Source: an uncultured Kiritimatiellota bacterium (lineage in GTDB: Bacteria > Verrucomicrobiota > Kiritimatiellia > RFP12 > DVOR01). Taken from it: a stretch of DNA of 64,000 nt. The translations under genes were made by a program, and so were the position numbers. Below are positions 2,270 through 64,000 of this stretch, piece by piece (position 1 is the stretch's first letter; each line of letters starts with the position of its first letter). The DNA lies in NCBI GenBank assembly GCA_944391055.1, contig CALXSF010000004.1, positions 97,374-161,373 on the forward strand, in the 5' to 3' direction. The notes below the pieces were generated by a model. It saw only the letters and a list, made by a program, of their open reading frames with translations, made no database searches and had not been told where the DNA came from.

Positions 2270-5473
<3,204 letters not shown>

Positions 5474-5488
5474 GGCGAGGGAAACAAA

Positions 5489-5525
5489 AAGGCCGGCCGC
5501 GACGCACGTCGCGGCCGGCCTTTTT
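5489..5525. terminator. bidirectional rho-independent terminator (GC hairpin flanked by A and T runs) between convergent carB and gspE
   Basis: aaaaaGGCCGGCCGCGACGcacGTCGCGGCCGGCCttttt. Confidence 0.55.
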
Positions 5526-5534
5526 CGTGGGGCC

Positions 5535-7223
5535 TCACTTGGCGTCTTCGGTGACGCGCATGAGTTCCTCGACGGAGGTGAAGCCCGAGAAGACCTTGCG
5601 CCACCCGTCTTGGCGCAAGGTGGCCATGCCCTCCTCCATCGCGGCTTTGCGGATCTCGGCGGAGGAGTGGCGGCCGATGATGAGGCTGCCGATGCGCTCG
5701 GAGACGCCGAGCAGCTCGAAGATGGCGCCGCGGCCCTTGTAGCCGGTGTTGGCGCAGGCCTCGCAGCCGACGGGCGCGTAGACATGATCCTGCGGGGGGA
5801 GGTGGGGCTGATCCCACCAGCCGTCCTTGAGGGGGATTTCCTTGCGGCATTTGGGGCAAAGGCGCCGGGCGAGGCGTTGGGCGAGGACGCCGGCGACGGC
5901 GGAGGCCACGAGGAAGGGCTCGGCGCCCATGTCGATGAGGCGGGCGAAGGCGCCGGCGGCGTCGTTGGTGTGAAGGGTGGAGAAGACGAGGTGGCCGGTG
6001 AGCGAGGCGTTGATGGCAATCTCGGCGGTCTCGCCGTCGCGAATCTCGCCGACCATGATGATGTCCGGGTCTTGGCGGAGGAAGGCGCGGAGGGCGCGGG
6101 CGAAGGTGAGGCCGATGTCCGCGCGGACGAGGACTTGGTTGATCCCCTTCATCTCATACTCGATGGGGTCCTCGGCGGTCATGATGCGGACGTTGACCTT
6201 GTTGATTTCGTGCAGGAAGGCGTAGAGGCTCGTGGACTTCCCCGAGCCGGTGGGGCCGGTGACGAGGATGATGCCGTTGGGCCGGGTGATGAGCTTGTTG
6301 GTGAGGGCATAGTCGCGCTCGCTCATGCCAAGATCTTTGAGCTGGACGAAGTTGCCGGCCTTTTGGAGCAAACGCAGCGAGACGCTCTCGCCATAGGCGG
6401 TGGGGCAGGTGGAGACGCGGATGTCGATGTCCTCGCCGTTGAGGCGGATGCCGATGCGGCCGTCCATGGGCAGGCGCTTCTCGGCGATGTCGAGGTTGGC
6501 CATGACTTTGAGGCGCGAGATGATGGCGGCCTTGAGGCGATTGATCTGCGGGGGGACGTCGACCTTGTGCAGCATGCCGTCGATGCGATAACGGATCCGC
6601 AGCTCGTCCTCCATCGGCTCCACATGGATGTCCGTGGCGCCCTGGCGGTCGGCCTCGGCGATGATTTGGTTGACGAAGCGGACGATGGAGGCCTCCTGCC
6701 CCATCTCGTTCACGTCGATCTTCGAGATGTTGGCCTCCGTGTCAGAGACCTCGTAGCGCCCATCCTCGATCATCTTCTCGATGGCCTCGGCGCCGACGCC
6801 GTAATACTTCTTGATGGCCTTGTCGATTTCCTCGGAGGGCGCCAGCCGGATGCGGACGTGTTTGCCGCAGGCCAACCGGATGCCATCGGCGGCGGCGTTC
6901 ATGGGGTCGCTGAGGGCCACGACAAGCGTCTCCCCCTCGACGGCCAACGGCAGCGCATTGTATTGGTGGACGGCGCGGGCGGGCAGGAGGCGAAGCGCCT
7001 CGTCGGACGGGCGGGCCTTGGCAAGATCGACGTAGTCCAGTCCAAGCACCGGCGCGAGCTTCTCCAGGAAGTCCGCCTCGCGGGCCATCTCCAGCCTGGC
7101 CACCGCGGCGGGCAGCCCCTCGGCAAGGTCGGCGTTGAGTAAAATCTCGATCTGGGCGTCCTTGAAGAGGCCGGTCTTCTTGAGCAGGTTGGCCAGAAAG
7201 GTCTGTTGCGCGGTCATGGGCAC
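5535..7223 (-). CDS. gspE: type II secretion / type IV pilus assembly ATPase (GspE/PilB family)
   Basis: Walker A motif GPTGSGKST, the tetracysteine motif CPKC...CEAC, and a T2SSE N-terminal domain. 562 aa. Confidence 0.9.
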   Translation of the reverse strand: MPMTAQQTFLANLLKKTGLFKDAQIEILLNADLAEGLPAAVARLEMAREADFLEKLAPVLGLDYVDLAKARPSDEALRLLPARAVHQYNALPLAVEGETLVVALSDPMNAAADGIRLACGKHVRIRLAPSEEIDKAIKKYYGVGAEAIEKMIEDGRYEVSDTEANISKIDVNEMGQEASIVRFVNQIIAEADRQGATDIHVEPMEDELRIRYRIDGMLHKVDVPPQINRLKAAIISRLKVMANLDIAEKRLPMDGRIGIRLNGEDIDIRVSTCPTAYGESVSLRLLQKAGNFVQLKDLGMSERDYALTNKLITRPNGIILVTGPTGSGKSTSLYAFLHEINKVNVRIMTAEDPIEYEMKGINQVLVRADIGLTFARALRAFLRQDPDIIMVGEIRDGETAEIAINASLTGHLVFSTLHTNDAAGAFARLIDMGAEPFLVASAVAGVLAQRLARRLCPKCRKEIPLKDGWWDQPHLPPQDHVYAPVGCEACANTGYKGRGAIFELLGVSERIGSLIIGRHSSAEIRKAAMEEGMATLRQDGWRKVFSGFTSVEELMRVTEDAK

Positions 7224-7250
7224 CTCATGGGATTGGAGATCACGGAAGGG

Positions 7251-8465
7251 TCACAGCTCCTCGAGGAAGCGGACGAACTCAGGGTAAATGGCGTCCATCA
7301 TGAAGTTCTCCCGGGCAAGGCGGGCGGAGGCGAGGGCCTCCCGGGTGAGGCGGCTGCGGCGATGGAGATAATCCTTCAGGACGCGCGCGAAATCCGCCTC
7401 GTCCCCGGCGCGATACTGCGCGCCCGCCCCGTAACGTTCGATGAGCGCCTGCGTCTCGCCGGTCAGGCAGCAGATCATCGGGAGCCCGGCGGCGGTGTAA
7501 TCGGCGAGCTTGTAAGGCACGGCCACATGGCTGTCCGGGAACATCGGCACGACGGCGACGTCCGAATCGGCCAACAGCTGCTGCATATCCTCGTTGCTGA
7601 GGTAGCCATGGAAACGGATGGAGGCGCACCCCTTGGCCTCCCGGCGGAGAAGCGGCTCGCGAGGCCCCGTCCCGGCAAGGTCAAGGCGGACGTTCTCCCC
7701 GGCCTCGGACAGGCGGCGCACGACGCGGACGACGGTTCGCAGATCGTAGCTCCGCCCCATGTTCCCGACGTAAATGAGGCGCAGCGGCTCCGATTCGTCG
7801 AGGCTGTACCGCGAGGCGCCGTTGTTCATCCGCATGATCCCGTGATAGCACAGATGGCGCGGCGCGCGGCAGCCATACCGCATGGCCAAGCCCAGATAGG
7901 TGACGCCGACGGCCGAGACCGCGTCGGCCAGGCGATAGGCGCGCCGGGCCGCGCGGTGGGCCCGCGCGAAGACCACCCTCCCAAGCAACTCCTTGGCCCA
8001 CGGCGGGCCGGGAATGAGGCGATGGAAGTTCTCCGGCCACGCGTCCATCACGTCCACCACGGCCTTGCACCCCCACCGCCCGCGGAAACGCCGGGCGACG
8101 GCGGCGGTCTCGATGGGCGGCCACGAGGTCAGCACCAAATCCGGGCGCGGCAGCTCGCCCGCCTCGACGGCGGCGACGGCCAAACGCTCCCACGCGGCGG
8201 CATAACGGCGATGGCTCCACGCGCGGCGCAGCCCGATGTTGTCTCGGTAAGGCAGCGTCGGGACAAGGCGCACCTCGAACCCCTCCGGCGCGCGATAGAC
8301 AGGCTCCAGCCTGCGGGGACGTTTGGTGGCGTGCGAGAAGTCGCTGCTCCACCAAACCACCCGGTGGCCGGCCTTGGACAAGGCGCGGCACAGCAGGTTG
8401 TAGCGTTGGGGACGCCGCCCCTCGCCAGGGAGATTGTCGAAGGGGTTGTTGATCCACACGTTCAT
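7251..8465 (-). CDS. glycosyltransferase family 1 (GT4-type)
   Basis: C-terminal GT1 motif ...PMFPDSHVAVPYKLADYTAAGLPMICC...; the start was moved to MNVWINNPFDN so it overlaps the nadB stop by about 14 nt rather than 98 nt. Confidence 0.75.
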   Translation of the reverse strand: MNVWINNPFDNLPGEGRRPQRYNLLCRALSKAGHRVVWWSSDFSHATKRPRRLEPVYRAPEGFEVRLVPTLPYRDNIGLRRAWSHRRYAAAWERLAVAAVEAGELPRPDLVLTSWPPIETAAVARRFRGRWGCKAVVDVMDAWPENFHRLIPGPPWAKELLGRVVFARAHRAARRAYRLADAVSAVGVTYLGLAMRYGCRAPRHLCYHGIMRMNNGASRYSLDESEPLRLIYVGNMGRSYDLRTVVRVVRRLSEAGENVRLDLAGTGPREPLLRREAKGCASIRFHGYLSNEDMQQLLADSDVAVVPMFPDSHVAVPYKLADYTAAGLPMICCLTGETQALIERYGAGAQYRAGDEADFARVLKDYLHRRSRLTREALASARLARENFMMDAIYPEFVRFLEEL

Positions 8466-8475
8466 GCGCCCGCCC

Positions 8476-10086
8476 TCACCACTCCTTCTCCGGCGCGCGG
8501 ACAAGGTCGGTGTCATGGGCCAGGCGCAGCCGCTCGGGATAATCGAGGGTGTAATGGAGGCCGCGGCTCTCATGGCGGCTCATGGCCGAGGTGATGATGA
8601 GCTCGGCCACGTCGGCGATGTTGCGCAGCTCCAACACATCGGCGGTGACAAGATAGTCGAAATAATACTCGTTGATCTCCTCGCGCAGATTGCGGACCCG
8701 GCGCAGGGCGCGGCGAAGGCGCTTGTCGGTTCGGACGATGCCCACGTAGTCCCACATGCACGTGCGCAGCTCCTGCCAGTTGTGGGCCACGAGGACGGCC
8801 TCGTCGGTGGGGACGGCATGGCCATAGACCCAGTCGGGAACGGTGACGTGCGCGACGCTCGGGACCGGCTCGGCGCAAAGCGCCTTGGCGCACTCGCACC
8901 CGCAGACAAGCGCCTCCAGCAGCGAATTGCTGGCCAGGCGGTTGGCCCCATGAAGCCCCGTGCACGCGCACTCGCCGATGGCGTAAAGGCCGGGGAGCGT
9001 GGTGCGCCCGGCGACGTCCGCGGCGATGCCGCCGCAAAGGTAATGGGCGGCCGGCACGATGGGGATGAGGTCGCGCGCCATGTCGATGCCGAACTCCAGG
9101 CACTTGGCGTAGATGGCGGGGAAACGCGTCTTGAGATACGCCTCGCCCTTGTGGCGGATGTCGAGGCAGCAATAGGCGTCACCGCGCGTCTTCATCTCGT
9201 TGTCGATGGCGCGGGCCACGATGTCGCGCGGGGCGAGGGAGCCGCGCGGGTCGTACCGCTCCATGAACGGCGTGCCGTCGCGCGTCACCAAGACGGCCCC
9301 CTCGCCGCGCACCGCCTCGCTGATGAGGAACCGCTTGGCCTTCGGATGGAAGAGACAGGTGGGGTGGAACTGCACCATCTCCATGTTGCGGATCTTCGCG
9401 CCCGCGCGCCACGCCACGGCGATGCCGTCGCCCGTGGCGATGTCGGGGTTGCAGGTGTATTGGTAGACCTTGCCGATGCCGCCGGTGGCGAGGATGACCG
9501 CGCCCGTGCGCACGGCCCAGATTTCGCCGGTCTCCGTGCTCAGCAGATAGGCGCCGACCACGCGGTTCTCGCCGCCCTCGCGCAGAAAGCGCGTGGTCAC
9601 CAAATCGATCAGCAGCGTGTTCTCGCAGACATGCAAGCCCTTGGTCGCGCGCACGCGCGCCGCGAGCGTCCGCTCCACCTCGCGCCCCGTGATGTCGCCG
9701 GCATGGAGGATCCGCCGCCGCGTGTGCCCCCCCTCGCGCGTCAGGTCATAACCCTCCGGGCAGGCCGAGCCCTCGCCCTTGGTGAACGGCACGCCCATCT
9801 CGATGAGGCGGCGGAGACAGGCGGGGCCGGCCTCGACGATGCGCCGCACCACGTCCTCATGGCACAGCCCGGCCCCCGCGTCAAGCGTGTCGGCCACGTG
9901 TAGGTCAAACGTGTCGTCCGTGCCCATCACGCACGAAATGCCGCCCTGGGCATAGGCGGTGTTCGCCTCGTCCAACGCCCGCTTCGTCACCAACAGCACG
10001 CGCCCATGCCCCGCCAGCCCCATCGCGGCCATCGACCCGGCGATGCCGCTGCCGACGACCAGGTAATCGCAGTCAATCGTTCTCAT
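8476..10086 (-). CDS. nadB: L-aspartate oxidase
   Basis: MRTIDCDYLVVGSGIAGSMAA FAD-binding N-terminus and a succinate dehydrogenase/fumarate reductase flavoprotein-like fold. 536 aa. Confidence 0.9.
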   Translation of the reverse strand: MRTIDCDYLVVGSGIAGSMAAMGLAGHGRVLLVTKRALDEANTAYAQGGISCVMGTDDTFDLHVADTLDAGAGLCHEDVVRRIVEAGPACLRRLIEMGVPFTKGEGSACPEGYDLTREGGHTRRRILHAGDITGREVERTLAARVRATKGLHVCENTLLIDLVTTRFLREGGENRVVGAYLLSTETGEIWAVRTGAVILATGGIGKVYQYTCNPDIATGDGIAVAWRAGAKIRNMEMVQFHPTCLFHPKAKRFLISEAVRGEGAVLVTRDGTPFMERYDPRGSLAPRDIVARAIDNEMKTRGDAYCCLDIRHKGEAYLKTRFPAIYAKCLEFGIDMARDLIPIVPAAHYLCGGIAADVAGRTTLPGLYAIGECACTGLHGANRLASNSLLEALVCGCECAKALCAEPVPSVAHVTVPDWVYGHAVPTDEAVLVAHNWQELRTCMWDYVGIVRTDKRLRRALRRVRNLREEINEYYFDYLVTADVLELRNIADVAELIITSAMSRHESRGLHYTLDYPERLRLAHDTDLVRAPEKEW

Positions 10087-10933: not shown

Positions 10934-10941
10934 GATTGGGT

Positions 10942-10950
10942 AGTATAACA
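10942..10950 (-). promoter_or_regulatory. extended -10 box (TGTTATACT on the minus strand) 8 nt upstream of ATG 10933, implying a leaderless mRNA
   Basis: Direct read of the minus strand. Confidence 0.4.
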
Positions 10951-11016
10951 CGTTCCCGCCCGCACGTGTGCCGCGTCGGGACGTCCCGGGGCGCGCGCGG
11001 CGCGCCCGTCGGCGCC

Positions 11017-14487: not shown

Positions 14488-14572
14488 GGGGACTCCTTTC
14501 GCGCCCAGTCTACCAAACCGCGCACGCCCGCGCAGTCATGTTTTCGGACCGAAGGGTTGGGCCCGCGATGGG

Positions 14573-16378: not shown

Positions 16379-16395
16379 GATCGGGACTCTCCAAG

Positions 16396-17860
16396 TTAGT
16401 TCCGAAGGACATCCGCCTGCGTCAGTGGGCGATCGAATGTGAGCTCGAGGATAAGCGGCGCGTCCAAGGAGGCATTTCCGAAAGCAATCTCGTAGCCCTG
16501 TGGGGACTCTTTGAGGATGAGGCCCTCGCCGCTCAGCGCACGCTGCGCCACAAGGCGGACGCCGGGGAGCTTCGGCAACGCCACGGGCGTGCCATCCTTG
16601 GGCAGACGGATGACGTGGAGCCACGCCTTGTTGCCCTTGAAGGTGGCGCCGCCCCATGCGCCGGGGCGCCACGGGCCGCCGCGCGTGCCGTAGATGCTGT
16701 CGCCGTAGGCCTTGAGCCAATCGCCGACCTTCGCGAGCACGGCGGCTTGCTTTTCCGGCCACGAGCCATCCCAACGAGGCCCCCAGCTCAGGAGCAGGTT
16801 GCCATCGCCCATCGCGCACGCCTGCAATTTGCGGAAGACCTCCGCGGGCGGCTTGGGGACGGACTTCTCGCCGGTGTACGACCAGCCACGCGCAAGCGTC
16901 ATGCAGGTTTCCCACGGGCGACGGTTTTGGAACATGCCAATGCGTTGCTCGGGGGTGTCGAAGTCGCCGGGGACGCTGGCGCGGTTGTTGATGAGGATGC
17001 CGGGCTGGAGCTCGCGAACGCGGCGGGTGAGGCGCTCGGCGTCCCACATTTCGGGCGTGAACATCCCGCCATTCCAAACGGCGTCGAACCAGAAGATGTC
17101 AATCTTGCCGTAGTTCGAGCAAAGCTCCTCCACGGCCTTGAACTGATAGTCGATGTACGCCTTGTGGCGCGGGCCTGGCCGTATGGCCTTCCCGGGCTTG
17201 GCCTTCACGCGGCCTGGCGAGTTGGGGGAGTAATCCGCCGTCTCGGGATCCACGGGGCAATAATCCGGGTGATACCAATCGCGCTGAGAATAGTAGATGC
17301 CCACCTTCACGCCGGCCATGCGGCAGGCCTCGATGACTTCGCGCAGGAAGTCTTTGCCATAAGGCGTGTTCGTCACCTTGAAGTCCGAGAGTTTCGTGTC
17401 CCAAAGATGGAAACCGTCGTGGTGTTTGGCCACGATGACGGCATAACGCATCCCGGAGGAACGAAAGATGGTGGCCAAGTCCTCGCGCGAAAACCTCTCC
17501 AACCTCATCTGTTTGGGCCACGCTGTCCACGTCTCAAAGGTGTAAGGCTTTTTCCCGGGGTTGTCGGGAAGTTTTGCCTGCACCACGCCCCAGCTGAGGT
17601 CTTTGTTGGCGAAAGTGCTCGGACCAAAGCAGATGAACATCCCATAGCGCGCGCCGCGGAACCACTGGAGATCCCTCTCCGAGGCGAAGTTCGTCGCCGC
17701 CCAATCGTCATCGGGAATCACCTGCACGGCTCTGGCGTTTTGCCGTGCCATCGCTTCGAGGTTGCTGCCCTCCACGTCGCTCGCGCGAATCGACCATCCG
17801 GCCTGGACGCCACCCGCCGCAAGGGCAAGCGCTAAGGCAAACATAGGTTTCGTCCTCATC
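16396..17860 (-). CDS. alpha-L-fucosidase, GH29, secreted (tandem paralog)
   Basis: Signal peptide MRTKPMFALALALAAG; WFRGARYGMFICFGP...AKHHDGFHLWDT. Confidence 0.85.
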
Positions 17861-18066
17861 TTCTTTCGCTCCTTTCGCTTTGGTCGCGCCATCCGGCGAA
17901 CGTGGCGGCGACGGCACCTACAGCGATGCTTCACCACAATTATACGTTTTTGCGACTTCCCCACACGCCTCAAAGACGCTTCCCCCAGACGGGCGAAACG
18001 ACTGTATGCGGCAAATCCTGCCCCCTTGCCGATTCCGCAAAAACACGCGCCCTTCTTGGCGGCCTA

Positions 18067-18075
18067 TGCTATAAT
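18067..18075 (+). promoter_or_regulatory. extended -10 box TGcTATAAT 6 nt upstream of ATG 18082, implying a leaderless mRNA
   Basis: Direct read. Confidence 0.45.
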
Positions 18076-18081
18076 CCAAGC

Positions 18082-29347: not shown

Positions 29348-29702
29348 GGGGGTGACCAGGTTTCGACAGGGTATGTCCGGGCCTCGGTTGCGTGCCGGGG
29401 ATGATCGTTGGCCCCGTAAAACATCGATCAAAACCTAACTGCGAACGATAACTTCGCTTACGCGGCCTAACTTTAACGGCCCGTCGCCGAAACGCCGATG
29501 TCTGCTGAGCGTGGAAGCGTCGACTAGCAGGCCCTGTCGCGAACCGAACCCTCGGGGACGCGCGCTTGTACCAACATGAGGGTGTGCGTCCGTCCAAGCC
29601 CGTCGGTCGGCCTGTCGGACGCGAGACAATAGGCCGGATACGCACGTAGACATCGTGGTGAGGCTATCTTGGACGGGGGTTCGACTCCCCCCACCTCCAC
29701 CA
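29348..29702 (+). ncRNA. ssrA: tmRNA (SsrA)
   Basis: 5' GGGGGUGACCAGGUUUCGACAGGG. Tag ORF gcg aac gat aac ttc gct tac gcg gcc taa, giving ANDNFAYAA, at 29451-29480. 3' GGACGGGGGUUCGACUCCCCCCACCUCCACCA, which is a T-arm, an acceptor stem complementary to the 5' end, and CCA. Confidence 0.9.
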
Positions 29703-54767: not shown

Positions 54768-56432
54768 GTGCCCTGGGTTTCCGCGCCGGCACCCGACCCC
54801 GCGCTCGTCGCCGCCATCGCCGCCGAGGCCGGGCTCTCGCCTCTTGTCGCCGCCGTCGTCGCCCGCCGCGCCCCCACGCTCGCCGAGGCCCGCCGCTGGC
54901 TCGCCCCCGAACGCGCGCCGCTCTGCGACCCCTTCGCCCTCGGCGGCATGGAGGCCGCCGTCCGCCGCATCCTCCGCGCCGTCGCCGGGCGCGAGCCCAT
55001 CACCGTCTTCGGCGACTACGACGTGGACGGCGTCACCGCCACCGCCCTCCTCGTCCAAGCCCTCGCCCAGGCCGGCGCCGCCGTCAAACCCTTCATCCCC
55101 GACCGCGAGACCGAGGGCTACGGCCTCACCCCCGCCGCCCTCGCCCGCTGCCTGGCCTATCCCCCGCGCCCCGAGCTCCTGATCACCGTCGACTGCGGCA
55201 TCTCCAGCCCCGACGAGGTCGCCTGGCTGCGCGGCCAAGGCGTGGAGACCATCGTCACCGACCACCACACGCCCCCCGGCCGCCTCCCCGAGGCCGCCCT
55301 TGCCATCGTTAACCCCCGCCTCGCCGCGCCCCCCGGCGCCGAGGGCCTCTGCGGCTGCGCCGTCGCCCTCACACTCGTCCGGGCCCTTGCCGCGCGCGGA
55401 CTCCCCGTCCGCCCGGAGGCGTTCCTCGACCTTGCCGCCGTCGCCACCATCGCCGACGTCATGGCGCTCACCGGCGAGAACCGCGCCCTTGTCGCCCAAG
55501 GCCTCCGCGCCCTCGCCCGCCCCGGCGCCAACCCCGGGCTCCGCGCCTTGGCGGACGCCCAGCGCCTGCCGACCGCCCCGACCGCCGAGCAGGTCGCCTT
55601 CGGCGTCGTCCCCTGCGTCAACGCCGCCGGCCGCCTTGGCCGCCTCAAGCTGGCCTACGGCCTCATCGGCCTGCGCAACCCGGCCTTCGCCCGCCCCCTT
55701 GTCGCCCTCAACGAAGAGCGCCGCCGCATCGAGCGCGCGCTTTTGGGCCGCATCCTCGCCGCCGACCCCACACCCGCCGGCAACCTCCTGCTCGCCGCCG
55801 GCGAGGATTTCCACCCCGGCGTGCTGGGCATCGTCGCCGCCCGCCTCGTCGAACGCTTCGGACTCCCCGTCGCCCTCGTCCGCCTCACCCCCGACGGCGG
55901 CGGCAGCGGCTCCATGCGCGCCTGCCCGCCCTGGGACGCCGTCCGCGCCCTCGACGCCGTCGCCGACCTGCTCGCCGCCCACGGCGGCCACGCCGGCGCC
56001 GCCGGCTTCACCCTGCGCCCCGGCGCCTGGCCCGACTTCGCCCGACGCCTCCCCGATGCCTTCCCCGACATCCCCGGGCAGGAGCAGACCGCCACCTGCG
56101 AGGCCGACCTCACCCACCAGCCCATCACCCTCGCCCTCTGCCGCGAACTCGAACGGCTGGAACCCTACGGCCACGGCAACCCCAAGCCCATCTTCCGCAA
56201 AGACTTCACCCTCTGCGAAGCCCGCCCCATCGGCGCCGACGGCACCCACCTGCGTCTGGCCCTCCGCCCCCTCGAAGGCGGCAACCCCCTCAAGGCCGTC
56301 TGGTTCGGCAACGCCCAAGCCGCCCGCGACTGGCGCCCCGGGCTCCGCCTCCGCGCCTGGTTCACCCTCGCCGTCGACACCTTCCGCGAGCCCGTCCCCA
56401 ACCTCATCCTCGCCGACGCCCAACCCTTCTGA
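54768..56432 (+). CDS. recJ: single-stranded-DNA-specific exonuclease RecJ
   Basis: DHH (VFGDYDVDGVTAT...DHH) and DHHA1 domains; GTG start. Confidence 0.9.
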   Translation: MPWVSAPAPDPALVAAIAAEAGLSPLVAAVVARRAPTLAEARRWLAPERAPLCDPFALGGMEAAVRRILRAVAGREPITVFGDYDVDGVTATALLVQALAQAGAAVKPFIPDRETEGYGLTPAALARCLAYPPRPELLITVDCGISSPDEVAWLRGQGVETIVTDHHTPPGRLPEAALAIVNPRLAAPPGAEGLCGCAVALTLVRALAARGLPVRPEAFLDLAAVATIADVMALTGENRALVAQGLRALARPGANPGLRALADAQRLPTAPTAEQVAFGVVPCVNAAGRLGRLKLAYGLIGLRNPAFARPLVALNEERRRIERALLGRILAADPTPAGNLLLAAGEDFHPGVLGIVAARLVERFGLPVALVRLTPDGGGSGSMRACPPWDAVRALDAVADLLAAHGGHAGAAGFTLRPGAWPDFARRLPDAFPDIPGQEQTATCEADLTHQPITLALCRELERLEPYGHGNPKPIFRKDFTLCEARPIGADGTHLRLALRPLEGGNPLKAVWFGNAQAARDWRPGLRLRAWFTLAVDTFREPVPNLILADAQPF

Positions 56433-56463: not shown

Positions 56464-57042
56464 TCAAACCGGCAACGCAGGCAAGGCGAATCTTCCCCTC
56501 CCCCACTCCATCAAAGCAGCGACGGAAGTATGAGAGGCGACGGGCTCGGTGGGATCCCAGATGAATTCCTTGTAGACGTTCCACGGGCTGTTGGAGAAGA
56601 GCTGCTGAACGCAGAGGTAGCCGTTGTAAAGGAACTTGGTGTAGGTGACCTGGCGGTTGCCGGCCATCTCCTTGTGGAAGACGCGCCGGCCGAGGCGGTC
56701 GTAGCCCATCGTAACGACCGTGTTCCCCTGCGTCCAGCGGATGGGGCGATTTTCGGCGTTGTATTCCACCGCCCATTCGCCCGTGTCGGTGAGCACCTTG
56801 GTCTGGTTGCCGTCGGCGTCGTATTCCGGCACGAAGGCGTCGATGGCGGTGTATTGGTTGAGCGCGTTGGCGGCGTACGCCCGCCCCTCGGCCACGGTGC
56901 GGTTGCCGATGTCGTCGTAAGCATACGTGAAGCCCTGCCCGGCGACAAACTGGTCACAGAAGTCATAGGCATAGGTCTCCGTCTTGGCAATTCCCGTGCG
57001 GCGGCCAAAACGTGGAGGCGTTGTCCGAATTGTGTATCGTAA
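56464..57042 (-). pseudogene. Rhs/YD-repeat core remnant (third, degraded copy) with no toxin tip
   Basis: YAYDDIGNRTVAEGRAYAANALNQYTAID...QGNTVVTMGYDRLGRR...KEFIWDPTEPVA is about 95% identical to the internal core of the two upstream Rhs genes, then diverges into a short unrelated tail. Confidence 0.7.
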
Positions 57043-57052
57043 CATTTGCCTC

Positions 57053-57580
57053 CTAAAGATAAGCACTATTAAAGCTAAGATTTTTCAACATCTTGACATA
57101 GGCTTCGAAGAACTCACGCAACTGGATTCGCTCATCCAAAAGTTGCTTGAGACGACGCCTCATGTTCTTAGACATTTTTACCCCATCGTTATAACATGCT
57201 ATTCTTTTTTCCACCGCAAATGGTTTTAAGAAGCCGTTTGTTACGAATGAGGCATCGCAATGTTCAGCAACATCAACGGCATTCCACAGTAGCGGGTAGA
57301 TATTGTCAAACGAGAGAGCCGGACAATATCGGGTTTTACACTGGAACGCAACACATGCGGGCTCTTTCCAGCCGCGCAAATACCAAGGTGTAAGGATGGG
57401 GCCTTTATACATTCTCTCTATTCGGAAACAATGATAATTTTCTGTGATATATAACGCATTAACCCAACAATCCAATGTATGCAACTCAACAAGAGGAGGA
57501 CTACCATCTTCGAGAGAAATGAGAGAAGACCATTTCCCCGAGAAAATAATCATTCGCGGAAATCCTAAACCCGGTTTCAT
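57053..57580 (-). CDS. Rhs-cassette small protein, paralog B of an unclassified Cys/His-motif family (candidate immunity protein for the 57582-58299 toxin tip)
   Basis: Low-GC. Start is 1 nt after the Rhs stop (TGAcATG). About 50% identical to the protein at 60241-60783, with the shared block GFPRM...LEDG...WVNAL.ITENYHCF...LTPWYLRGW..P.CVAFQCK..YCP.LSFDN.YPLLW. Confidence 0.5.
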   Translation of the reverse strand: MKPGLGFPRMIIFSGKWSSLISLEDGSPPLVELHTLDCWVNALYITENYHCFRIERMYKGPILTPWYLRGWKEPACVAFQCKTRYCPALSFDNIYPLLWNAVDVAEHCDASFVTNGFLKPFAVEKRIACYNDGVKMSKNMRRRLKQLLDERIQLREFFEAYVKMLKNLSFNSAYL

Positions 57581-57581
57581 G

Positions 57582-58299
57582 TCAATCAACACGTTTACAG
57601 TCCAAATATGTTTCGCTTGCCTCTCCGTCTTTCTCAAAGACGAGTTCTTCCACAACACGCAAAGAAGTGGAAATTTGAAATGCTTTCGCACCTGTGGAAT
57701 ATTGCAAATACCAAAGTTCATACCTTGTAAGTGTAAGTCTTGGGGAATTACCATGTATAAATGAATGTACTTGCGAAGACGTCTTCATTTCTCCACGGAT
57801 AGTCTGTCCATAGATGGGATTCAGGTTCCACGGCTGATTTTTAATCCAGTCGGGAATGTGTTTTCCAATGGCACTGTTTTGACGGATGAATTGATGGTGG
57901 ACATGTGTTCCAGGAGGGATCGAATACTGTTTACCATACCACCTCCGAGTGGCTCGCCACGTGTGGCTGCCAGTCTTCCAACACCCTTTGCCCAAGGTTG
58001 ACACCACCGATCGAAGAAGGGTTATGTCCGAAATTGCAATGCCAAGATTGAACGCACCCTGCACATAATGCCCATTGTAAAAGGCTTCATCCATGCCACG
58101 GATTGGGCCATAAACAGGAATCAACTCCTCAATCCCACTTACCGGAGGAGGCGCTGGTCTGTCCGGATCATAAAGGATGGATTCCGCCATGGCATTTGGC
58201 CCACCAAGTGTCGCCACGTCCAATCCCAAGATATCGTAAAGATAAAAACTATTCCCGCAAATCAGATAGAGGTTTCGCGAAAACTCCTCCTCCAGCGGG
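57582..58299 (-). other. Rhs C-terminal toxin domain 2 (unclassified; contains WKTGSHTWR...GTHVHHQF)
   Basis: Sequence diverges from Rhs copy 1 exactly after GRD; markedly lower GC. Confidence 0.6.
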
Positions 58300-60212
58300 T
58301 CTCTTCCGAGCCAGCGGCCATCGTTGGGGTTGTAATGGCGGTAGTTGTAGTAGACGAGGGCGAGGGCGTCGTCGTGGAACTCGGAGGAGAAGCGGAAAGG
58401 ATTGTCGGCGGCGCGGGAGCCGGTGGCGGCGACGGCGCCGAAGGGGGCGTAGTCGTAGTGGGCGACGGGCTCGTTGAAGGGGCCGACGGTGACGACGTCG
58501 GTCACGTTCTTGTTGCCGTCGTGGAGGAGGAAGGTGGCGCGTTTGGCGTTTTGGCGGAAGCAGAGGGGACGGGTCGCAACGGGCTCGGTGGGATCCCAAA
58601 TGAACTCCTTGTAGACGTTCCACGGGCTGTTGGAGAAGAGTTGCTGGACGCAGAGGTAGCCGTTGTAAAGGAACTTGGTGTAGGTGACCTGGCGGTTGCC
58701 TTCCATCTCTTTGTAGAAGACCCGCCGCCCCATGCGGTCAAAACCCATGGTGATGACTTTATTGCCCTGCGTCCAGCGGATGGGGCGGTTCTCGGCGTTG
58801 TATTCCACCGCCCATTCGCCCGTTTCCGTGAGCACCTTGGTCTGATTGCCGTCGGCGTCGTATTCCGGCTCGAAGGCGTCGATGGCGGTGTATTGGTTGA
58901 GCGCGTTGGCGGCGTACGCCCGCCCCTCGGCCACGGTGCGGTTGCCGATGTCGTCATAGGCATAGGAACGGGCGTCGGCGGAGGTCAACTGGTCGCGGAG
59001 GTCGTAGCCATACTGCTCGTCATTCTTGGAGACGCGGCGGCCGAGGAGGTCGTTGGCGTAGACATACGTGCTGAGGGCCGTCCCGTCGGGGAGGCTGTTG
59101 GTGACGGCGGTCAGCAGGTCGCGCCCCGGCTCATACGCCCATTCCGCCGTGAGGCCATTGGGATAGGTCAGCCTGGCCTTGAGGTCGGAGCCGGGCAGGT
59201 AGGCCCAGGCGAAGTTCCCGCCCTCGTTCATCGTGGCGAGGCGCCCGGTGGCGGGGTCGTAGCCCAAGGTCATCCGACGGCTGCCGCTCACGGAATAACC
59301 CGCGTCGCGCCCGTAGGCGTCGAAGTGGTGGGTGAGCGTCTTGGCGTACTCGCCCGTGATGGACTCCGTCTCCAGCTCGCCGTAGGCATTATAGCCAAAG
59401 GTGGTGGTGCCCACCGCGTCCGTCGCCTGCGCCTGACGGCCAAAGACGTCATAAACATAGCCCACCGCCGGCGTGCCGTCCGAGTACGTCTGCGACACAA
59501 GGTCGCCGTAGACATTGTAGGCGTAGGTTGTCACGTTGCCGCGCGCGTCCGTGCGCGTCGCCACCTGGCCAAGGTCGGTGAGCGTGTAGGCCACGCCATG
59601 GCCGTCGGCATACGTCTTCGAGAGCAAGGCCCCCGTGGCCTCATCGTAAGCCCACGTCGTCGAGTCGCCCTCGCCGGAAGCCTCGTCGCGGAAGGTCGTC
59701 ATGCCCACCTTCTGCCCGAACAGGTCATAATCATACACCACGGGATAGACGGCGCCACCCTCGTAGGTCTTGTTGCCGCGCACGTCGTATTCATAGACCG
59801 TCACGTTGCCAAGGGCGTTGGTGACGGCGCAGACGCGCCCCGCCTCGTCATAACCATAGGCCGTCGTCGCCCCCACGGCGTCCGTCACCGAGGCCAGGCG
59901 CCCGCGCGCGTCATACGCCCGCGCCGTCACGTTCCCGCGGCCGTCCGTCTCCGCCACCACGCGCAGATACTTGTCATAGGCCGTCGAGTTGGTCACGCAC
60001 GAAGCGCTCACCGTCTGCACCGTCACCCCATCGAGCGCCACCTCCACCGATGGGTTGCCCACCCCAGGGAAGGTCGTCGTCACCAGACCGAAGAGGGCAT
60101 TGGCGTAAGCATTGCACGAAACAACAATATCATTGCTGATATTGATCTCGCAATTGAGAAATCCTAATGTCGCTCTATAATCCCAAATATGAACTGTTCT
60201 TTGGATAAACAT
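57582..60212 (-). CDS. Rhs repeat protein, N-terminally truncated duplicate of the core, with a low-GC C-terminal toxin domain of unknown class
   Basis: YD repeats through to ...YNYRHYNPNDGRWLGRD, then a divergent 238-aa tip. The first 45 aa come from low-GC DNA. Confidence 0.8.
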   Translation of the reverse strand: MFIQRTVHIWDYRATLGFLNCEINISNDIVVSCNAYANALFGLVTTTFPGVGNPSVEVALDGVTVQTVSASCVTNSTAYDKYLRVVAETDGRGNVTARAYDARGRLASVTDAVGATTAYGYDEAGRVCAVTNALGNVTVYEYDVRGNKTYEGGAVYPVVYDYDLFGQKVGMTTFRDEASGEGDSTTWAYDEATGALLSKTYADGHGVAYTLTDLGQVATRTDARGNVTTYAYNVYGDLVSQTYSDGTPAVGYVYDVFGRQAQATDAVGTTTFGYNAYGELETESITGEYAKTLTHHFDAYGRDAGYSVSGSRRMTLGYDPATGRLATMNEGGNFAWAYLPGSDLKARLTYPNGLTAEWAYEPGRDLLTAVTNSLPDGTALSTYVYANDLLGRRVSKNDEQYGYDLRDQLTSADARSYAYDDIGNRTVAEGRAYAANALNQYTAIDAFEPEYDADGNQTKVLTETGEWAVEYNAENRPIRWTQGNKVITMGFDRMGRRVFYKEMEGNRQVTYTKFLYNGYLCVQQLFSNSPWNVYKEFIWDPTEPVATRPLCFRQNAKRATFLLHDGNKNVTDVVTVGPFNEPVAHYDYAPFGAVAATGSRAADNPFRFSSEFHDDALALVYYNYRHYNPNDGRWLGRDPLEEEFSRNLYLICGNSFYLYDILGLDVATLGGPNAMAESILYDPDRPAPPPVSGIEELIPVYGPIRGMDEAFYNGHYVQGAFNLGIAISDITLLRSVVSTLGKGCWKTGSHTWRATRRWYGKQYSIPPGTHVHHQFIRQNSAIGKHIPDWIKNQPWNLNPIYGQTIRGEMKTSSQVHSFIHGNSPRLTLTRYELWYLQYSTGAKAFQISTSLRVVEELVFEKDGEASETYLDCKRVD
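58299..60080 (-). repeat. 1.78-kb direct repeat A (Rhs core), near-identical to 61980-63761
   Basis: Long runs are identical with only scattered SNPs, for example the 59101-59160 stretch matches its counterpart near 62782-62841. Confidence 0.85.
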
Positions 60213-60240
60213 GATTAACGATTTAATTTAGTTGGGACCG

Positions 60241-60783
60241 TTACACTTGGGAGACATAGGGACTATTCATACTGTAATTTCTCACTATCTCAATATAATG
60301 AACGAAAAATTCTCGCAATGGTATCCGATTTTCAACCAACCCTTTGAGTTTTTTCTTCATTCGCTGCGACATCGGCCCACCATCCCCAAATCGGGCAATC
60401 CGAGATGTCGTTGTGAACTCGCCCAATTGATAAGCATTACATAGACTAATCGACACACATGACGCAATGTCAATAGCCCTCCATAAAAGAGGATAAACGT
60501 TATCAAACGAAAGCTGTGGACAATAACATGCCTTGCAGTGAAATGCCACACATGAAGGTTGGCACCAACCACGCAAATACCACGGTGTAAGATTTCTCCC
60601 TTTTTCCATCTTGATTATCTTGAAGCAATGATAGTTCTCTGTGATAAGCAACGCATTGACCCAATGTTTAAGCGTCGACACTGCAATCTGTGGCATTGCC
60701 CCATCTTCTAGCGTAACAACAGAGGCGAATGCCCCAGGGAAAACAACCATTCGCGGAAAACCAAACAGTGGTCTCATAATCAC
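60241..60783 (-). CDS. Rhs-cassette small protein, paralog A of the same Cys/His-motif family (possibly an orphan immunity gene)
   Basis: Low-GC; about 50% identical to 57053-57580. Confidence 0.5.
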   Translation of the reverse strand: MIMRPLFGFPRMVVFPGAFASVVTLEDGAMPQIAVSTLKHWVNALLITENYHCFKIIKMEKGRNLTPWYLRGWCQPSCVAFHCKACYCPQLSFDNVYPLLWRAIDIASCVSISLCNAYQLGEFTTTSRIARFGDGGPMSQRMKKKLKGLVENRIPLREFFVHYIEIVRNYSMNSPYVSQV

Positions 60784-60792
60784 TCCAAGCGT

Positions 60793-61404
60793 TTACAAAT
60801 TAGATAATTGATAACGCTCTTCAACTAAAATTGTTTTGAAGAATGTCCGTTTTGAAAAATGGTAACAAATCCGCCAAAGGCCCTCTTGAAAAAATGTTAC
60901 ATCTTGGGAAAATCGCACCTCCATCCCTGGCTCCAACAAGAAAATTGGTGCAACGCAAGAAACATTCCCTACTCTAACAAAAGGTTCCTTTAGAACCTCT
61001 GTTCGCAAAAAATGAATGTTGTAAAAGCCATGAAACCCAACCACTCCATCCGTCGCATAGATTCCTGCTTCGTTAAAACATCCCTCAGCATTCTCATCAA
61101 GTAAAGCCCAGCGTTTCTCTGTTACATTGTATTTCTCCACCGTAATCTCAACCGGAAGGGACGCGACATCAACAGAAACCCTGTTCTCATTTGAAAGAAT
61201 GACCCACACTGTAATTGGTTGACCGCACGAAACAATGCAAGACTTTTGACTAAAGCGACCTTGTAACAACAAATCATCAGCGGGAAAATCAATTTGCACG
61301 ATTCCCTCATCTATGTCTAAACTCGACAAACAAGAGAATTGTGACAACGCCATTATAAAAAGCCCACTTACCAATACATTTCTGAATAGACGTTCTCTTC
61401 CCAT
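60793..61404 (-). CDS. Rhs-cassette small protein with a signal-peptide/lipoprotein-like N-terminus (candidate immunity protein for the HExxH toxin tip)
   Basis: Low-GC; overlaps the Rhs stop. N-terminus LVSGLFIMALSQFSCLSS. Confidence 0.45.
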   Translation of the reverse strand: MGRERLFRNVLVSGLFIMALSQFSCLSSLDIDEGIVQIDFPADDLLLQGRFSQKSCIVSCGQPITVWVILSNENRVSVDVASLPVEITVEKYNVTEKRWALLDENAEGCFNEAGIYATDGVVGFHGFYNIHFLRTEVLKEPFVRVGNVSCVAPIFLLEPGMEVRFSQDVTFFQEGLWRICYHFSKRTFFKTILVEERYQLSNL

Positions 61405-61980
61405 TCCTGTTCACTCCCCATATTTTGTCCATGATTCGTTTCTTCGTCAAAAGTCAAATTCCGCTCATTTTGTCGGTCCCAAGCTGTTTTTCTCAACTCA
61501 TCTCGTTCTGTTTGCAACGATTTCAAGGCCTTGGCTTTTGCGCCGTCATATGTCGTTGCGCAAACACTTACCATAGGAAGCGAAGAACGCTTGTACGCAT
61601 TTAAATAGATGTTAATATGAGTTCTCTCATGTGCAAGTATCTGCCAAGACTGTTTGGCTTCTTCTGTCGCCCAACTTTTGTCTTCCAAAAAGTAAAAAAT
61701 CCATTTGGCCCGAGTAGCAATAGCCTGAACACAAATACAATCTGTATCACTGGAAACGATTGAGAAATCAATATCCGCCTCATTTATACTCATGTATGGT
61801 TGTGCCAAAACAGTTTCTGCCACACGGCCGTTTCGCGTTTCATACGATGGGATTGTTCCTTGAAAATCAGCCCACGTTATCTCTGATGCATACTCAAACT
61901 TTTTAAGTCCACGTCGATCATATTGCGAAAGGGGAGAATTATCAACGAACGAATAAAGATTGTCAGAATAATCTTCAACG
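61368..61980 (-). other. Rhs C-terminal toxin domain 1 (HExxH zinc-metallopeptidase-like)
   Basis: AHERTH motif; low GC. Confidence 0.6.
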
Positions 61981-64000
61981 TCTCTTCCAAGCCAGCGGCC
62001 GTCGAGGGGGTTGTAGTGGCGGTAGTTGTAGTAGACGAGAGCGAGGGCGTCGTCGTGGAACTCGGAGGAGAAGCGGAAGGGATTGTCGGCGGCGCGGGAG
62101 CCGGCGGCGGCGACGGCACCGAAGGGGGCGTAGTCGTAGTTGGCGACGGGCTCATTGAAGGGGCCGACGGTGACGACGTCGGTCACGTTCTTGTTGCCGT
62201 CGTGGAGGAGGAAGGTGGCGCGTTTGGCGTTTTGGCGGAAACAGAGGGGACGGGTCGCGACGGGCTCGGTGGGATCCCAGATGAATTCCTTGTAGACGTT
62301 CCACGGGCTGTTGGAGAAGAGCTGCTGGACGCAGAGGTAGCCGTTGTAAAGGAACTTGGTGTAGGTAATCTGGCGGTTGCCGGCCATCTCCTTGTGGAAG
62401 ACGCGCCGACCGAGGCGGTCGTAACCCATCGTGACGACCGTGTTCCCCTGCGTCCAGCGGATGGGGCGGTTCTCGGCGTTGTATTCCACCGCCCACACGC
62501 CCGTGTCGGTGAGCACCTTGGTCTGATTGCCGTCGGCGTCGTATTCCGGCTCGAAGGCGTCGATGGCGGTGTATTGGTTGAGGGCGTTGGCGGCGTACGC
62601 CCGCCCCTCGGCCACGGTGCGGTTGCCGATGTCGTCGTAAGCATAGGAACGGGCGTCGGCGGAGGTCAACTGGTCGCGGAAGTCGTAGCCATACTGCTCG
62701 TCATTCTTGGAGACACGGCGGCCGAGGAGGTCGTTGGCGTAGACATACGTGCTGAGAGTCGTCCCGTCGGGGAGGCTGTTGGTGACGGCGGTCAGCAGGT
62801 CGCGCCCCGGCTCATACGCCCATTCCACCGTGAGGCCGTTGGGATAGGTCAGCCTGGCCTTGAGGTCGGAGCCGGGCAGGTAGGCCCAGGCGAAGGCGCC
62901 GCCCTCGTTCATCGTGGCGAGGCGCCCGGTGGCGGGGTCGTAACCCAAGGTCATCCGACGGCTGCCGTTCACGGAATAGCCCGCGTCGCGCCCGTAGGCG
63001 TCGAAGTGATGCGTGAGCGTCTTGGCGTACTCGCCCGTGATGGACTCCGTCTCCAGCTCGCCGTAGGCATTATAGCCAAAGGTGGTGGTGCCCACCGCGT
63101 CCGTCGCCTGCGCCTGACGGCCAAAGACGTCATAAACATAGCCCACCGCCGGCGTGCCGTCCGAGTACGTCTGCGACACAAGGTCGCCGTAGACATTGTA
63201 GGCGTAGGTTGTCACGTTGCCGCGCGCGTCCGTGCGCGTCGCCACCTGGCCAAGGTCGGTGAGCGTGTAGGCCACGCCATGGCCGTCGGCATACGTCTTC
63301 GAGAGCAAGGCCCCCGTGGCCTCATCGTAAGCCCACGTCGTCGAGTCGCCCTCGCCGGAAGCCTCGTCGCGGAAGGTCGTCATGCCCACCTTCTGCCCGA
63401 ACAGGTCATAATCATACACCACGGGATAGACGGCGCCACCCTCGTAGGTCTTGTTGCCGCGCACGTCGTATTCATAGACCGTCACGTTGCCAAGGGCGTT
63501 GGTGACGGCGCAGACGCGCCCCGCCTCGTCATAACCATAGGCCGTCGTCGCCCCCACGGCGTCCGTCACCGAGGCCAGGCGCCCGCGCGCGTCATACGCC
63601 CGCGCCGTCACGTTCCCGCGGCCGTCCGTCTCCGCCACCACGCGCAGATACTTGTCATAGGCCGTCGAGTTGGTCACGCACGAAGCGCTCACCGTCTGCA
63701 CCGTCACCCCATCGAGCGCCACCTCCACCGATGGGTTGCCCACCCCAGGGAAGGTCGTCGTCACCGTCCGCCACGCGCCCTCCTCCTCAATCACCGTCTC
63801 CGTCTCATTTCCGCGCACGTCCGTGGACACCTGGCTCAGGCCCTCCGCGTCCACGCGCACCGACTGCGTCAGGTTCGAGACCGCGACGACCGTCTCCAGC
63901 CACGGCTCGCCGTCGACGAGGACATAGGCCGTCGCCGTCTCCCGCGGCAGACGCGCGCCTACCTGCTCGGAGACGCGGTCGCCCCACGCGTCGTAGACGT
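61368..64000 (-). CDS. Rhs repeat protein (3' end of the gene; N-terminus lies beyond the window) with an HExxH metallopeptidase-like C-terminal toxin domain
   Basis: Frame is open to the window edge with YD repeats (YDAWGDRVSEQ...). The core ends ...RWLGRD, then a low-GC tip containing QILAHERTHINIY. Confidence 0.85.
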   Translation of the reverse strand, partial: VYDAWGDRVSEQVGARLPRETATAYVLVDGEPWLETVVAVSNLTQSVRVDAEGLSQVSTDVRGNETETVIEEEGAWRTVTTTFPGVGNPSVEVALDGVTVQTVSASCVTNSTAYDKYLRVVAETDGRGNVTARAYDARGRLASVTDAVGATTAYGYDEAGRVCAVTNALGNVTVYEYDVRGNKTYEGGAVYPVVYDYDLFGQKVGMTTFRDEASGEGDSTTWAYDEATGALLSKTYADGHGVAYTLTDLGQVATRTDARGNVTTYAYNVYGDLVSQTYSDGTPAVGYVYDVFGRQAQATDAVGTTTFGYNAYGELETESITGEYAKTLTHHFDAYGRDAGYSVNGSRRMTLGYDPATGRLATMNEGGAFAWAYLPGSDLKARLTYPNGLTVEWAYEPGRDLLTAVTNSLPDGTTLSTYVYANDLLGRRVSKNDEQYGYDFRDQLTSADARSYAYDDIGNRTVAEGRAYAANALNQYTAIDAFEPEYDADGNQTKVLTDTGVWAVEYNAENRPIRWTQGNTVVTMGYDRLGRRVFHKEMAGNRQITYTKFLYNGYLCVQQLFSNSPWNVYKEFIWDPTEPVATRPLCFRQNAKRATFLLHDGNKNVTDVVTVGPFNEPVANYDYAPFGAVAAAGSRAADNPFRFSSEFHDDALALVYYNYRHYNPLDGRWLGRDVEDYSDNLYSFVDNSPLSQYDRRGLKKFEYASEITWADFQGTIPSYETRNGRVAETVLAQPYMSINEADIDFSIVSSDTDCICVQAIATRAKWIFYFLEDKSWATEEAKQSWQILAHERTHINIYLNAYKRSSLPMVSVCATTYDGAKAKALKSLQTERDELRKTAWDRQNERNLTFDEETNHGQNMGSEQEWEENVYSEMYW
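61980..63761 (-). repeat. 1.78-kb direct repeat B (Rhs core), near-identical to 58299-60080
   Basis: See repeat A; constant offset of 3681 nt. Confidence 0.85.

Follow-up and report, generated by a model that had tools for sequence, protein, structure and literature searches.

A main Rhs gene and an orphan-module array sharing long direct repeats in an uncultured PVC-group gut bacterium

Organization of the Rhs array

The window analysed here (the whole stretch of 64,000 nt) contains an array of Rhs-related genes, all of them on the minus strand. Read in gene order, it comprises a main Rhs gene ending in a variable tip (tip B), a gene for a 203-aa protein, a gene for a 178-aa protein, a low-GC leader of 160 nt, an orphan Rhs core ending in a different tip (tip A), a gene for a 176-aa partner and a truncated third core fragment (fragment C). 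The array ends at a convergent recJ gene (54768..56432, plus strand), called with DHH, DHHA1 and RecJ_OB domains in the sister contig L001, and its neighbours are a greA-like gene, a DHH gene, recJ and ftsA/ftsZ. The idea that the two DHH-family genes flanking the array were duplicates of each other was rejected on comparison, and no tRNA or other integration landmark was found beside the array. A plus-strand open reading frame at 58068..60167 was also discarded as a gene, being an antisense shadow.

Only the 3' 2.6 kb of the main gene (61368..64000, minus strand) lie in the window, since its frame is open up to base 64000 and runs off the end; in L001 the gene is complete (3813..10037) and encodes 2074 aa, which bears out the first-pass annotation in placing the second of two repeats within a full-length Rhs. 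RHS repeats, YD repeats and an Rhs_assc_core region were detected in it with Pfam and NCBIfam, RHS_repeat being the sole Pfam domain of the 2074-aa protein, whose N-terminus is hydrophobic. The same repeats (PF05593 at E=1e-28 to 1e-43, together with TIGR01643) are found in the main gene, the orphan and fragment C, and TIGR03696 matches over its full length in both the main and the orphan core, at 51.4 bits for a cut-off of 32.5. Neither the main gene nor its surroundings yielded a PAAR, VgrG or T6SS signature, which leaves this gene outside the T6SS-delivered, PAAR/VgrG-linked subclass of Rhs proteins.

The orphan (57582..60212, minus strand) encodes 876 aa, namely 44 residues from the leader, 594 core residues and tip A; the first 1277 residues of the main protein have no counterpart in it. 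It thus has the features of an orphan rhs-CT module: it is downstream of the main gene and in the same direction, shares its core, has no N-terminal part and bears a distinct C-terminus with a partner of its own. The leader (60081..60240, minus strand; 39% GC) includes the ATG with which the orphan frame begins (60212), and joins the core abruptly at 60080. This junction is present in L001-L004; in L006 and L007 the leader is ~98% identical, but the core is joined to it at a different point.

Fragment C, which was missed in the first-pass annotation, occupies 56537..57052 (minus strand, flank included). Its core homology (56537-56924) stops at ...DPTEPVA, beside recJ, and sequence comparison shows the fragment to be a mosaic. 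In L031, the third orphan at this position is intact, with a tip of its own and a 100-aa membrane protein.

Two long direct repeats

The cores of the main gene and the orphan share a direct, gap-free repeat of 1782 nt. Repeat A (58299..60080, minus strand) is the core part of the orphan, and repeat B (61980..63761, minus strand) forms the 3'-terminal 1782 nt of the main core (TTTFPGVGNP to GRWLGRD). An ungapped comparison reproduces exactly the positions and the 3681-nt offset previously reported for them, although the "handful" of SNPs said to separate them proved an understatement. We count 55 mismatches in the window (96.9% identity), all 55 in the gene-3' 1033 nt, so that the gene-5' 749 nt are identical (59332-60080 and 63013-63761); both the mismatch count and the length of this perfect tract are unreliable because repeat-internal alleles vary between sister assemblies. 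The mismatches are distributed over 29 synonymous and 17 non-synonymous codons. Beyond the ends of A and B, identity falls within a few bases to the background of ~25%, and elsewhere in the window homology to them is limited to a single fragment of 388-437 nt (56537-56973); the match between A and B is too large for chance to be an issue. The offset is a multiple of three (3 x 1227) and the alignment is ungapped, so the reading frame is kept between both copies and any crossover between them would be in frame.

Base composition separates cores from tips. The cores have 65% GC, the tips, partner genes and leader 39-47%, and the remaining window 70%; at third codon positions, GC is ~0.89 in the core, 0.71 in the segment across the core-tip boundary and 0.35 in the tip. 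At the repeat start, there is no sharp GC3 boundary.

Two putative toxin tips and their partners

Both tips contain a DPxGL-type boundary motif (DILGL in A, DRRGL in B), are unrelated to each other by comparison, have no Pfam family match and are followed across loci by a conserved partner gene. Attempts to name them gave little: tips and small open reading frames alike returned nothing significant in Pfam or NCBIfam, sequence searches of the PDB were empty, AlphaFold modelled both tips poorly (pLDDT: tip A, 50.5; tip B, 60.5) and Foldseek found nothing in the PDB at E<=0.001 with the tip models.

In tip B (61368..61979, minus strand; 41% GC), the DRRGL motif precedes a domain with an HExxH motif (LAHERTHINIY), which is invariant in three homologues. 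There is a weak match to DUF922 (E=0.011), below the Pfam cut-off, and tip B is likely to be a zinc metallopeptidase-type toxin. HExxH tips of this kind are rare. The 203-aa open reading frame (60793..61404, minus strand), without a match in Pfam or NCBIfam, shares 37 nt with the end of tip B and encodes a lipoprotein-like signal peptide. In L029 and L030, a homologue of this gene follows a tip-B homologue with an identical 37-nt overlap, which makes three loci with the pairing, and the 203-aa protein is likely the cognate immunity protein predicted for tip B.

Tip A (57582..58298, minus strand; 47% GC) continues after DILGL with a domain of an unannotated family in which WK.GSH.W.ATR, VHH, NQPWN and H...H are invariant. 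The family is large, with 360 representative clusters at E<=1e-3, and the domain is C-terminal in 146 of the best 150 matches, many of them on Rhs/YD proteins. Tip A itself has no match in Pfam or the PDB; since all the naming attempts listed above failed, an HNH-like reading (VHH...NQPWN...H...H) is only a guess. The open reading frame that follows (57053..57580, minus strand; ~176 aa, called as 166 aa from 57553) lies next to tip A in at least 10 of the contigs examined, which come from several projects, with 15 such contigs recorded, and its product is likely the cognate immunity protein predicted for tip A.

The first-pass annotation had assigned two small genes, the 203-aa and the 178-aa gene, to the tip of the main gene (tip B). 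Only the former pairs with tip B; the latter (60241..60777, minus strand) belongs to another tip family. This Cys-rich 178-aa protein is 53% identical to the 176-aa protein, its family, which invariably comes after tip-A-type toxins, comprises only four clusters and its gene lies directly after a tip-A-family C-terminus in L005-L008 and L016. Judging from these homologies, it is a leftover immunity-type gene of the tip-A-partner family, apparently stranded when tip B and the 203-aa gene replaced a tip A'.

Strain comparison

Related strains hold the same core with different tips, and related PVC-group MAGs have similar arrays of core fragments. The most informative comparison is with L006, in which a unique upstream core is followed by the whole repeat, a tip-A-type toxin, the 178-aa gene and the same leader. 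With respect to it, the window has 1193 nt (tip B and the 203-aa gene) in place of 718 nt, between flanks that are 97-98% identical. This toxin change is a clean cassette replacement between flanking homologies, and not a repeat-mediated deletion. In the core of L006, moreover, A-type and B-type variants are interspersed in a fine mosaic.

Within the strain of the window, the architecture is identical in six large assemblies, all of them undeleted. The product that a deletion between the repeats would leave in this strain (upstream core, A-type variants, tip A and the 176-aa gene) is in no contig, nor does any contig contain an unambiguous circle junction. Five sister assemblies differ from the window at 19 sites only, all repeat-internal, a pattern typical of an unphased repeat consensus. 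One of them, L045, has the other allele at 8 sites within the 749-nt tract, in both copies. We had taken this tract as a sign of recent homogenisation (Fisher p=7e-14; 19 private L006 SNPs in the tract), a reading withdrawn in view of the L045 alleles, and 11 differences between the window and L001 had been considered as gene-conversion polymorphism, an interpretation dropped because the unphased consensus explains them better. An earlier warning about assembly collapse or expansion was therefore sound as regards SNP phasing and misplaced as regards the layout, on which the six assemblies agree: the fine sequence of the repeats is untrustworthy, whereas the overall arrangement holds.

Proposed mechanism and alternatives

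The locus is very probably an Rhs (YD-repeat) polymorphic-toxin gene with an array of orphan modules, in which the repeats are the 3' core of the main gene and the core stub of the orphan, shaped by displacement and recombination. Each core ends in a different low-GC, presumably horizontally acquired tip, a putative toxin, followed by its own immunity-type gene. In terms of the C-terminal displacement model from the literature, the main gene would have acquired new core-tip-immunity cassettes by recombination, with older tips displaced downstream, which would account for the orphan with tip A, the stray 178-aa gene and the truncated third fragment. Given their length, ~97% identity, direct orientation and common frame, A and B could undergo RecA-type recombination that deletes 3681 bp and puts tip A on the full-length delivery protein, giving an in-frame product of main core and tip A of ~2109 aa. 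The deletion would include the predicted tip-B immunity gene (203 aa), so single-step recombinants should die by sibling attack. In Salmonella, the loss of the main immunity made a prior duplication necessary (PMC3967940); were duplication to come first here, a cell may hold both main-tip forms. Gene conversion between A and B may also take place. The proposal that the repeats serve as a toxin switch thus gains from the in-frame geometry and the Salmonella precedent (PMC3967940), although the mechanism is not new and no deletion or circle junction was found.

How far can the assembled arrangement be trusted? It is very improbable that it is an artefact in which the second copy or the core-tip links were mis-assembled, with truly one Rhs core or another tip order. 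Such an error would explain why the 19 differing sites are all inside the repeats, with both copies always carrying one allele and all four G1/G2 combinations seen; the gene-5' 1 kb was evidently left unphased by the assemblers, joining the unique upstream core to the B-type variants needs a read path over 749-1000 nt of apparent identity, and one sister sample yielded a permuted contig (L002). However, several unique junctions can exist only if there are two copies: those between the end of a core and tip B, from the 178-aa gene through the leader into the start of a core, between the end of a core and tip A, and from the 176-aa gene through the flank into fragment C. Independent assemblies from at least three projects contain each of them. 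In addition, the gene-3' 780 nt show 44 consistent A/B differences in every assembly, and the alternative wiring would strand tip B and the 203- and 178-aa genes on a circle without an origin. The same variation might instead be real, the allele flips and L002 reflecting ongoing gene conversion and duplication in a natural population followed by a gut time series. The differences do fall only at repeat-variant sites, the alternative alleles are natural and partly shared with L006, and the L002 junction fits an unequal exchange between B and C giving a 5.7-kb duplication or circle, duplication being the first step in the Salmonella model (PMC3967940). We nonetheless hold this to be unlikely: the copies always change jointly, with all four block combinations among five or six samples, which fits random bubble choice by the assembler better than many independent conversions, and the tract of 93 nt in which the join in L002 is placed is the same in B and C and exceeds the apparent k of 55; other assemblies simply break there.

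A different question is what the orphan is kept for. Its main role might be to store immunity, or it might be expressed independently as a unit of toxin-antitoxin type, the repeat being a displacement scar and not a substrate for switching, which we regard as possible though somewhat doubtful. Retention of the 178-aa immunity-type gene without its cognate toxin points to immunity as the part under selection; in CDI arrays, orphan immunity genes are expressed and protective (PMC3150448), a role as a toxin-antitoxin module is reported for a Salmonella orphan rhs (PMC7043789), and orphan A has its in-frame ATG within the conserved leader. On the other hand, tip A and the 594-residue core stub are intact across 876 codons, though immunity alone would suffice, and no sigma-70-like site was found on the minus strand before 60212, in a scan that is weak for this phylum, where such promoter rules may not apply. 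A reservoir role is in any case compatible with the displacement and recombination model and does not exclude it.

Significance

The understanding of Rhs systems is unchanged by this locus, as its layout is already well known for storing and swapping toxins in bacteria. What it does is to extend the main-plus-orphan layout, and the toxin reloading that it implies, to uncultured high-GC PVC-group gut bacteria (Lentisphaerota/Kiritimatiellota-like), and to provide two uncharacterised putative toxin-partner pairs: one from the widespread tip-A family (~360 clusters), accompanied in this clade by a rare Cys-rich partner, and one joining a rare HExxH tip to a lipoprotein-like partner. There is also a practical warning, as the fine sequence of metagenome-assembled repeats is not to be trusted even where the layout is sound. 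Should the allele flips and L002 prove real against expectation, the gut population would be undergoing Rhs cassette gene conversion and duplication/excision, and public metagenomes would be a record of toxin switching in situ, in a lineage whose Rhs delivery involves no recognisable T6SS.

Comparison with known systems

The closest parallel is STM0291/STM0292 of Salmonella Typhimurium LT2, where a full-length rhs is likewise followed by a same-direction orphan that shares part of its core (~95-97% identical), differs in its CT and has a separate immunity gene (PMC3967940). In LT2, it was shown experimentally that recombination over the shared stretch (522 bp at 95% identity) moved the orphan tip onto the main rhs, fusing the orphan CT to it with loss of the main CT and immunity (PMC3967940), an outcome that is proposed here for A and B. 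The present locus differs from LT2 in its longer shared stretch (1782 nt vs 522 bp), in the additional stray immunity-type gene and the truncated fragment C, and in its host, a gut bacterium of the PVC group in which no T6SS signature lies near the gene. The orphan stub is also unusually long when compared with the ~0.7-kb stubs of the sister strains L006, L031 and L032.

Enterobacterial Rhs loci, the subject of the C-terminal displacement model, share with this array a GC-rich conserved core, AT-rich variable tips and small downstream open reading frames, as well as displaced tips with core stubs and mosaic cores (PMC2935791), whereas the phylum is another one and the tip and immunity families are new. 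The orphan cdiA-CT/cdiI arrays of CDI systems also place toxin-tip/immunity modules behind a large delivery gene, with short shared sequences that permit tip reloading and stray immunity genes that are kept (PMC3150448); unlike them, the present system has a YD-repeat shell instead of a two-partner-secretion filament, and its boundary motif is Rhs_assc_core/DxxGL and not VENN.

Architecture of the Rhs Locus

The two direct repeats reported by the first-pass annotation are real, and their limits (repeat A, 58299-60080; repeat B, 61980-63761; 1782 nt each) proved exact to the base in an ungapped comparison at offset 3681, in which the A/B identity collapses to background outside both ends. Instead of the "handful" of SNPs mentioned there, 55 mismatches were counted (96.9% identity), affecting 29 synonymous and 17 non-synonymous codons and all lying, in the window, within the gene-3' 1033 nt (gene-3' meaning toward lower coordinates), while the gene-5' 749 nt are identical. 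The 3' limit of the repeat is GRWLGRD, about 30 residues ahead of a DxxGL motif that reads DILGL in tip A and DRRGL in tip B (the variable C-termini of the orphan and the main Rhs, respectively), and a short third copy of the repeat is found at 56537-56973.

The genes of the locus are encoded on the minus strand. RHS/YD repeats, along with a complete Rhs-associated core domain, are present in the ORF of each copy; a 699-aa plus-strand ORF across repeat A was dismissed as an antisense shadow in GC-rich DNA. In gene order, the main Rhs with tip B (61368-61979) is followed by a 203-aa ORF (61404..60793), a 178-aa ORF (60777..60241), a low-GC leader of 160 nt with an ATG at 60212, the orphan core (repeat A) with tip A (58298..57582), an ORF of ~176 aa (57580..57053), a flank with the truncated core fragment C (57052..56537) and, lastly, the convergent recJ. 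The main Rhs and the orphan are neighbours that point the same way and share a reading frame (3681 = 3 x 1227); their tips differ, and each tip comes with its own conserved partner gene. The reading frame of copy B stays open as far as base 64000, and the sister contig L001 (11 differing sites from the window in 13.2 kb) shows that copy B closes an Rhs gene of 2074 aa. The N-terminus of the main protein is hydrophobic, and the ~1270 residues ahead of the repeats lack any recognisable domain (L001 3813-5400, past the window end); neither a PAAR nor a VgrG domain is present in the protein, and PAAR, VgrG or T6SS genes were not found within 10 kb of its gene in L001. The GC content is 65% in the cores, 39-47% in the tips, small genes and leader, and 70% in the remaining window; GC3 drops from ~0.89 (core) through 0.71 (segment across the core-tip boundary) to 0.35 (tip). 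Elsewhere in the window, a tmRNA gene (29348-29702, plus strand) specifies the tag peptide ANDNFAYAA.

Toxin Tips and Partner Proteins

Tip A and tip B are unrelated. The domain in tip A (57582-58229) apparently represents a sizeable Rhs C-terminal toxin family lacking annotation: it retrieved 360 representative clusters at E<=1e-3 (counted at 50% identity), including members from Phenylobacterium, Bradyrhizobium and Planctomycetia, is C-terminal in 146 of the 150 best matches, several of them Rhs or teneurin-like proteins, and shows invariant HH, Q..N and H residues, and Pfam and PDB searches with it gave no match. In tip B, an HExxH is invariant and DUF922 is matched below threshold; only two homologue clusters were found. 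The structure models of the tips were too poor for a fold assignment.

The proteins of 178 and 176 aa are paralogues (53% identical) of a very rare family, with 4 clusters among 5.8 billion proteins. Since in every other locus found (L005, L006-L008 and L016) a member lies directly after a tip-A-family Rhs C-terminus, this family provides the partners, presumably the immunity proteins, of tip-A-type toxins. Homologues of the 203-aa ORF follow tip-B homologues in two further loci (L029 and L030), with an identical 37-nt overlap. Judging from these positions, therefore, the two small genes previously credited to tip B have to be separated: only the 203-aa ORF is its cognate partner, the 178-aa ORF being a stray immunity-type gene. 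In L030 (388-1995), a truncated 176-like gene comes after the tip-B and 203-aa homologues, which places the tip B/203 cassette ahead of a 178-family gene for a second time, in other surroundings. The N-termini of the 203-aa family resemble lipoprotein signals (basic residues, a hydrophobic stretch and then a Cys), which hints that tip B may act outside the cytoplasm.

Variation among Strains and Relatives

The same core bears different tips in different strains. In strain L006, the unique upstream core leads into the whole repeat and a tip-A-type toxin (tip A'), then into a 178-aa gene 98% identical to its window counterpart and into the same leader. Where L006 has 718 nt, the window carries 1193 nt (tip B and the 203-aa ORF) between flanks 97-98% identical, a clean cassette replacement. 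In L006 and L007 this leader is fused to a short stub of core, at another point than in the window. Tip A and tip A' match in 479 of 480 nt and then fall abruptly to ~65% over the final 220 nt (57582-57800 vs L006 3290-3505), a divergence continuing into the partner genes (176 aa in the window, 178 aa in L006; 53% identical). The breakpoint falls inside the toxin domain and, because the final ~70 residues of tip A co-vary with the partner protein, this suggests that they are the putative immunity-binding part.

A-type and B-type variants alternate as a fine mosaic in the core of L006, which also has 41 private SNPs; fragment C is likewise mosaic. The place of fragment C is taken in L031 (1485-3234, equivalent to 56464-57052) by a third orphan that is intact: its core is short, its tip Gly-rich, and a 100-aa membrane protein goes with it. 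The best genome matches (56-62% identity) come from gut MAGs of uncultured Kiritimatiellia- or Lentisphaeraceae-type bacteria, and their loci also carry arrays of core fragments, mostly 70-89% identical; in a related Kiritimatiellaeota MAG (L013), the Rhs locus contains a 4.1-kb direct repeat (7066-11173 and 14273-18380; 94.5% identity, 7.2 kb apart).

Reliability of the Assembled Repeats

The earlier caution about assembly artefacts holds for the SNP content of the repeats, but not for their existence: the two-copy layout is safe, because every unique junction for which two copies are needed recurs in independent assemblies of several projects. The architecture is unchanged in five further assemblies of the strain, which belong to a single sample series and have contigs of 164-410 kb; over 12.6-20.6 kb these sister assemblies differ from the window only at 19 sites, all within the repeats (8 at repeat positions 324-553, 8 at 750-866, and those at 924, 935 and 1179). 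At these sites both copies share one allele in every sister assembly, the allele choice differs among assemblies and the two middle blocks occur in all four combinations. One of them, L045, has the alternative allele in both copies at the 8 sites within the "perfect" tract of the window, 4 of these alleles being common to strain L006. Such a pattern is expected of an assembler that fails to phase a repeat and chooses one branch per bubble; genuine concerted conversion may instead be at work, though that explanation is less economical. With an unphased consensus, both the A/B difference and the length of the perfect tract are uncertain: the former may reach 63 sites and the latter may shrink to ~320 nt.

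An assembler might also account for the permuted contig L002 (4.1 kb, from a sister sample), in which the stretch from tip A across the 176-aa gene to the C flank leads into distal core B and on through tip B, the 203-aa ORF, the 178-aa ORF and the leader. The two parts meet in a 93-nt tract that B and C share without a mismatch (window equivalents 56925-57017 and 62553-62645). A B x C duplication or circle should leave this junction, a mis-join at k=55 would yield it as well, and other assemblies break at this very tract; that L002 records a genuine rearrangement is considered improbable.

Possible Recombination and Toxin Switching

The array would have arisen by C-terminal displacement (following the model of PMC2935791). 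Through recombination between A and B, tip A could become attached to the main protein in a product of ~2109 aa. The event would also delete the 203-aa gene, and because of that loss the recombinants would become sensitised to the tip B of their siblings. The A x B deletion product of the window strain was not found. In Salmonella LT2, an orphan tip is loaded onto the main Rhs, for which 522 bp at 95% identity are enough, and sensitisation of the recombinants is avoided through prior duplication (PMC3967940). The interpretation of the repeats as a toxin switch pointed in the right direction, but the locus is a textbook Rhs main-plus-orphan array and the mechanism proposed for it has already been published, rather than being new.
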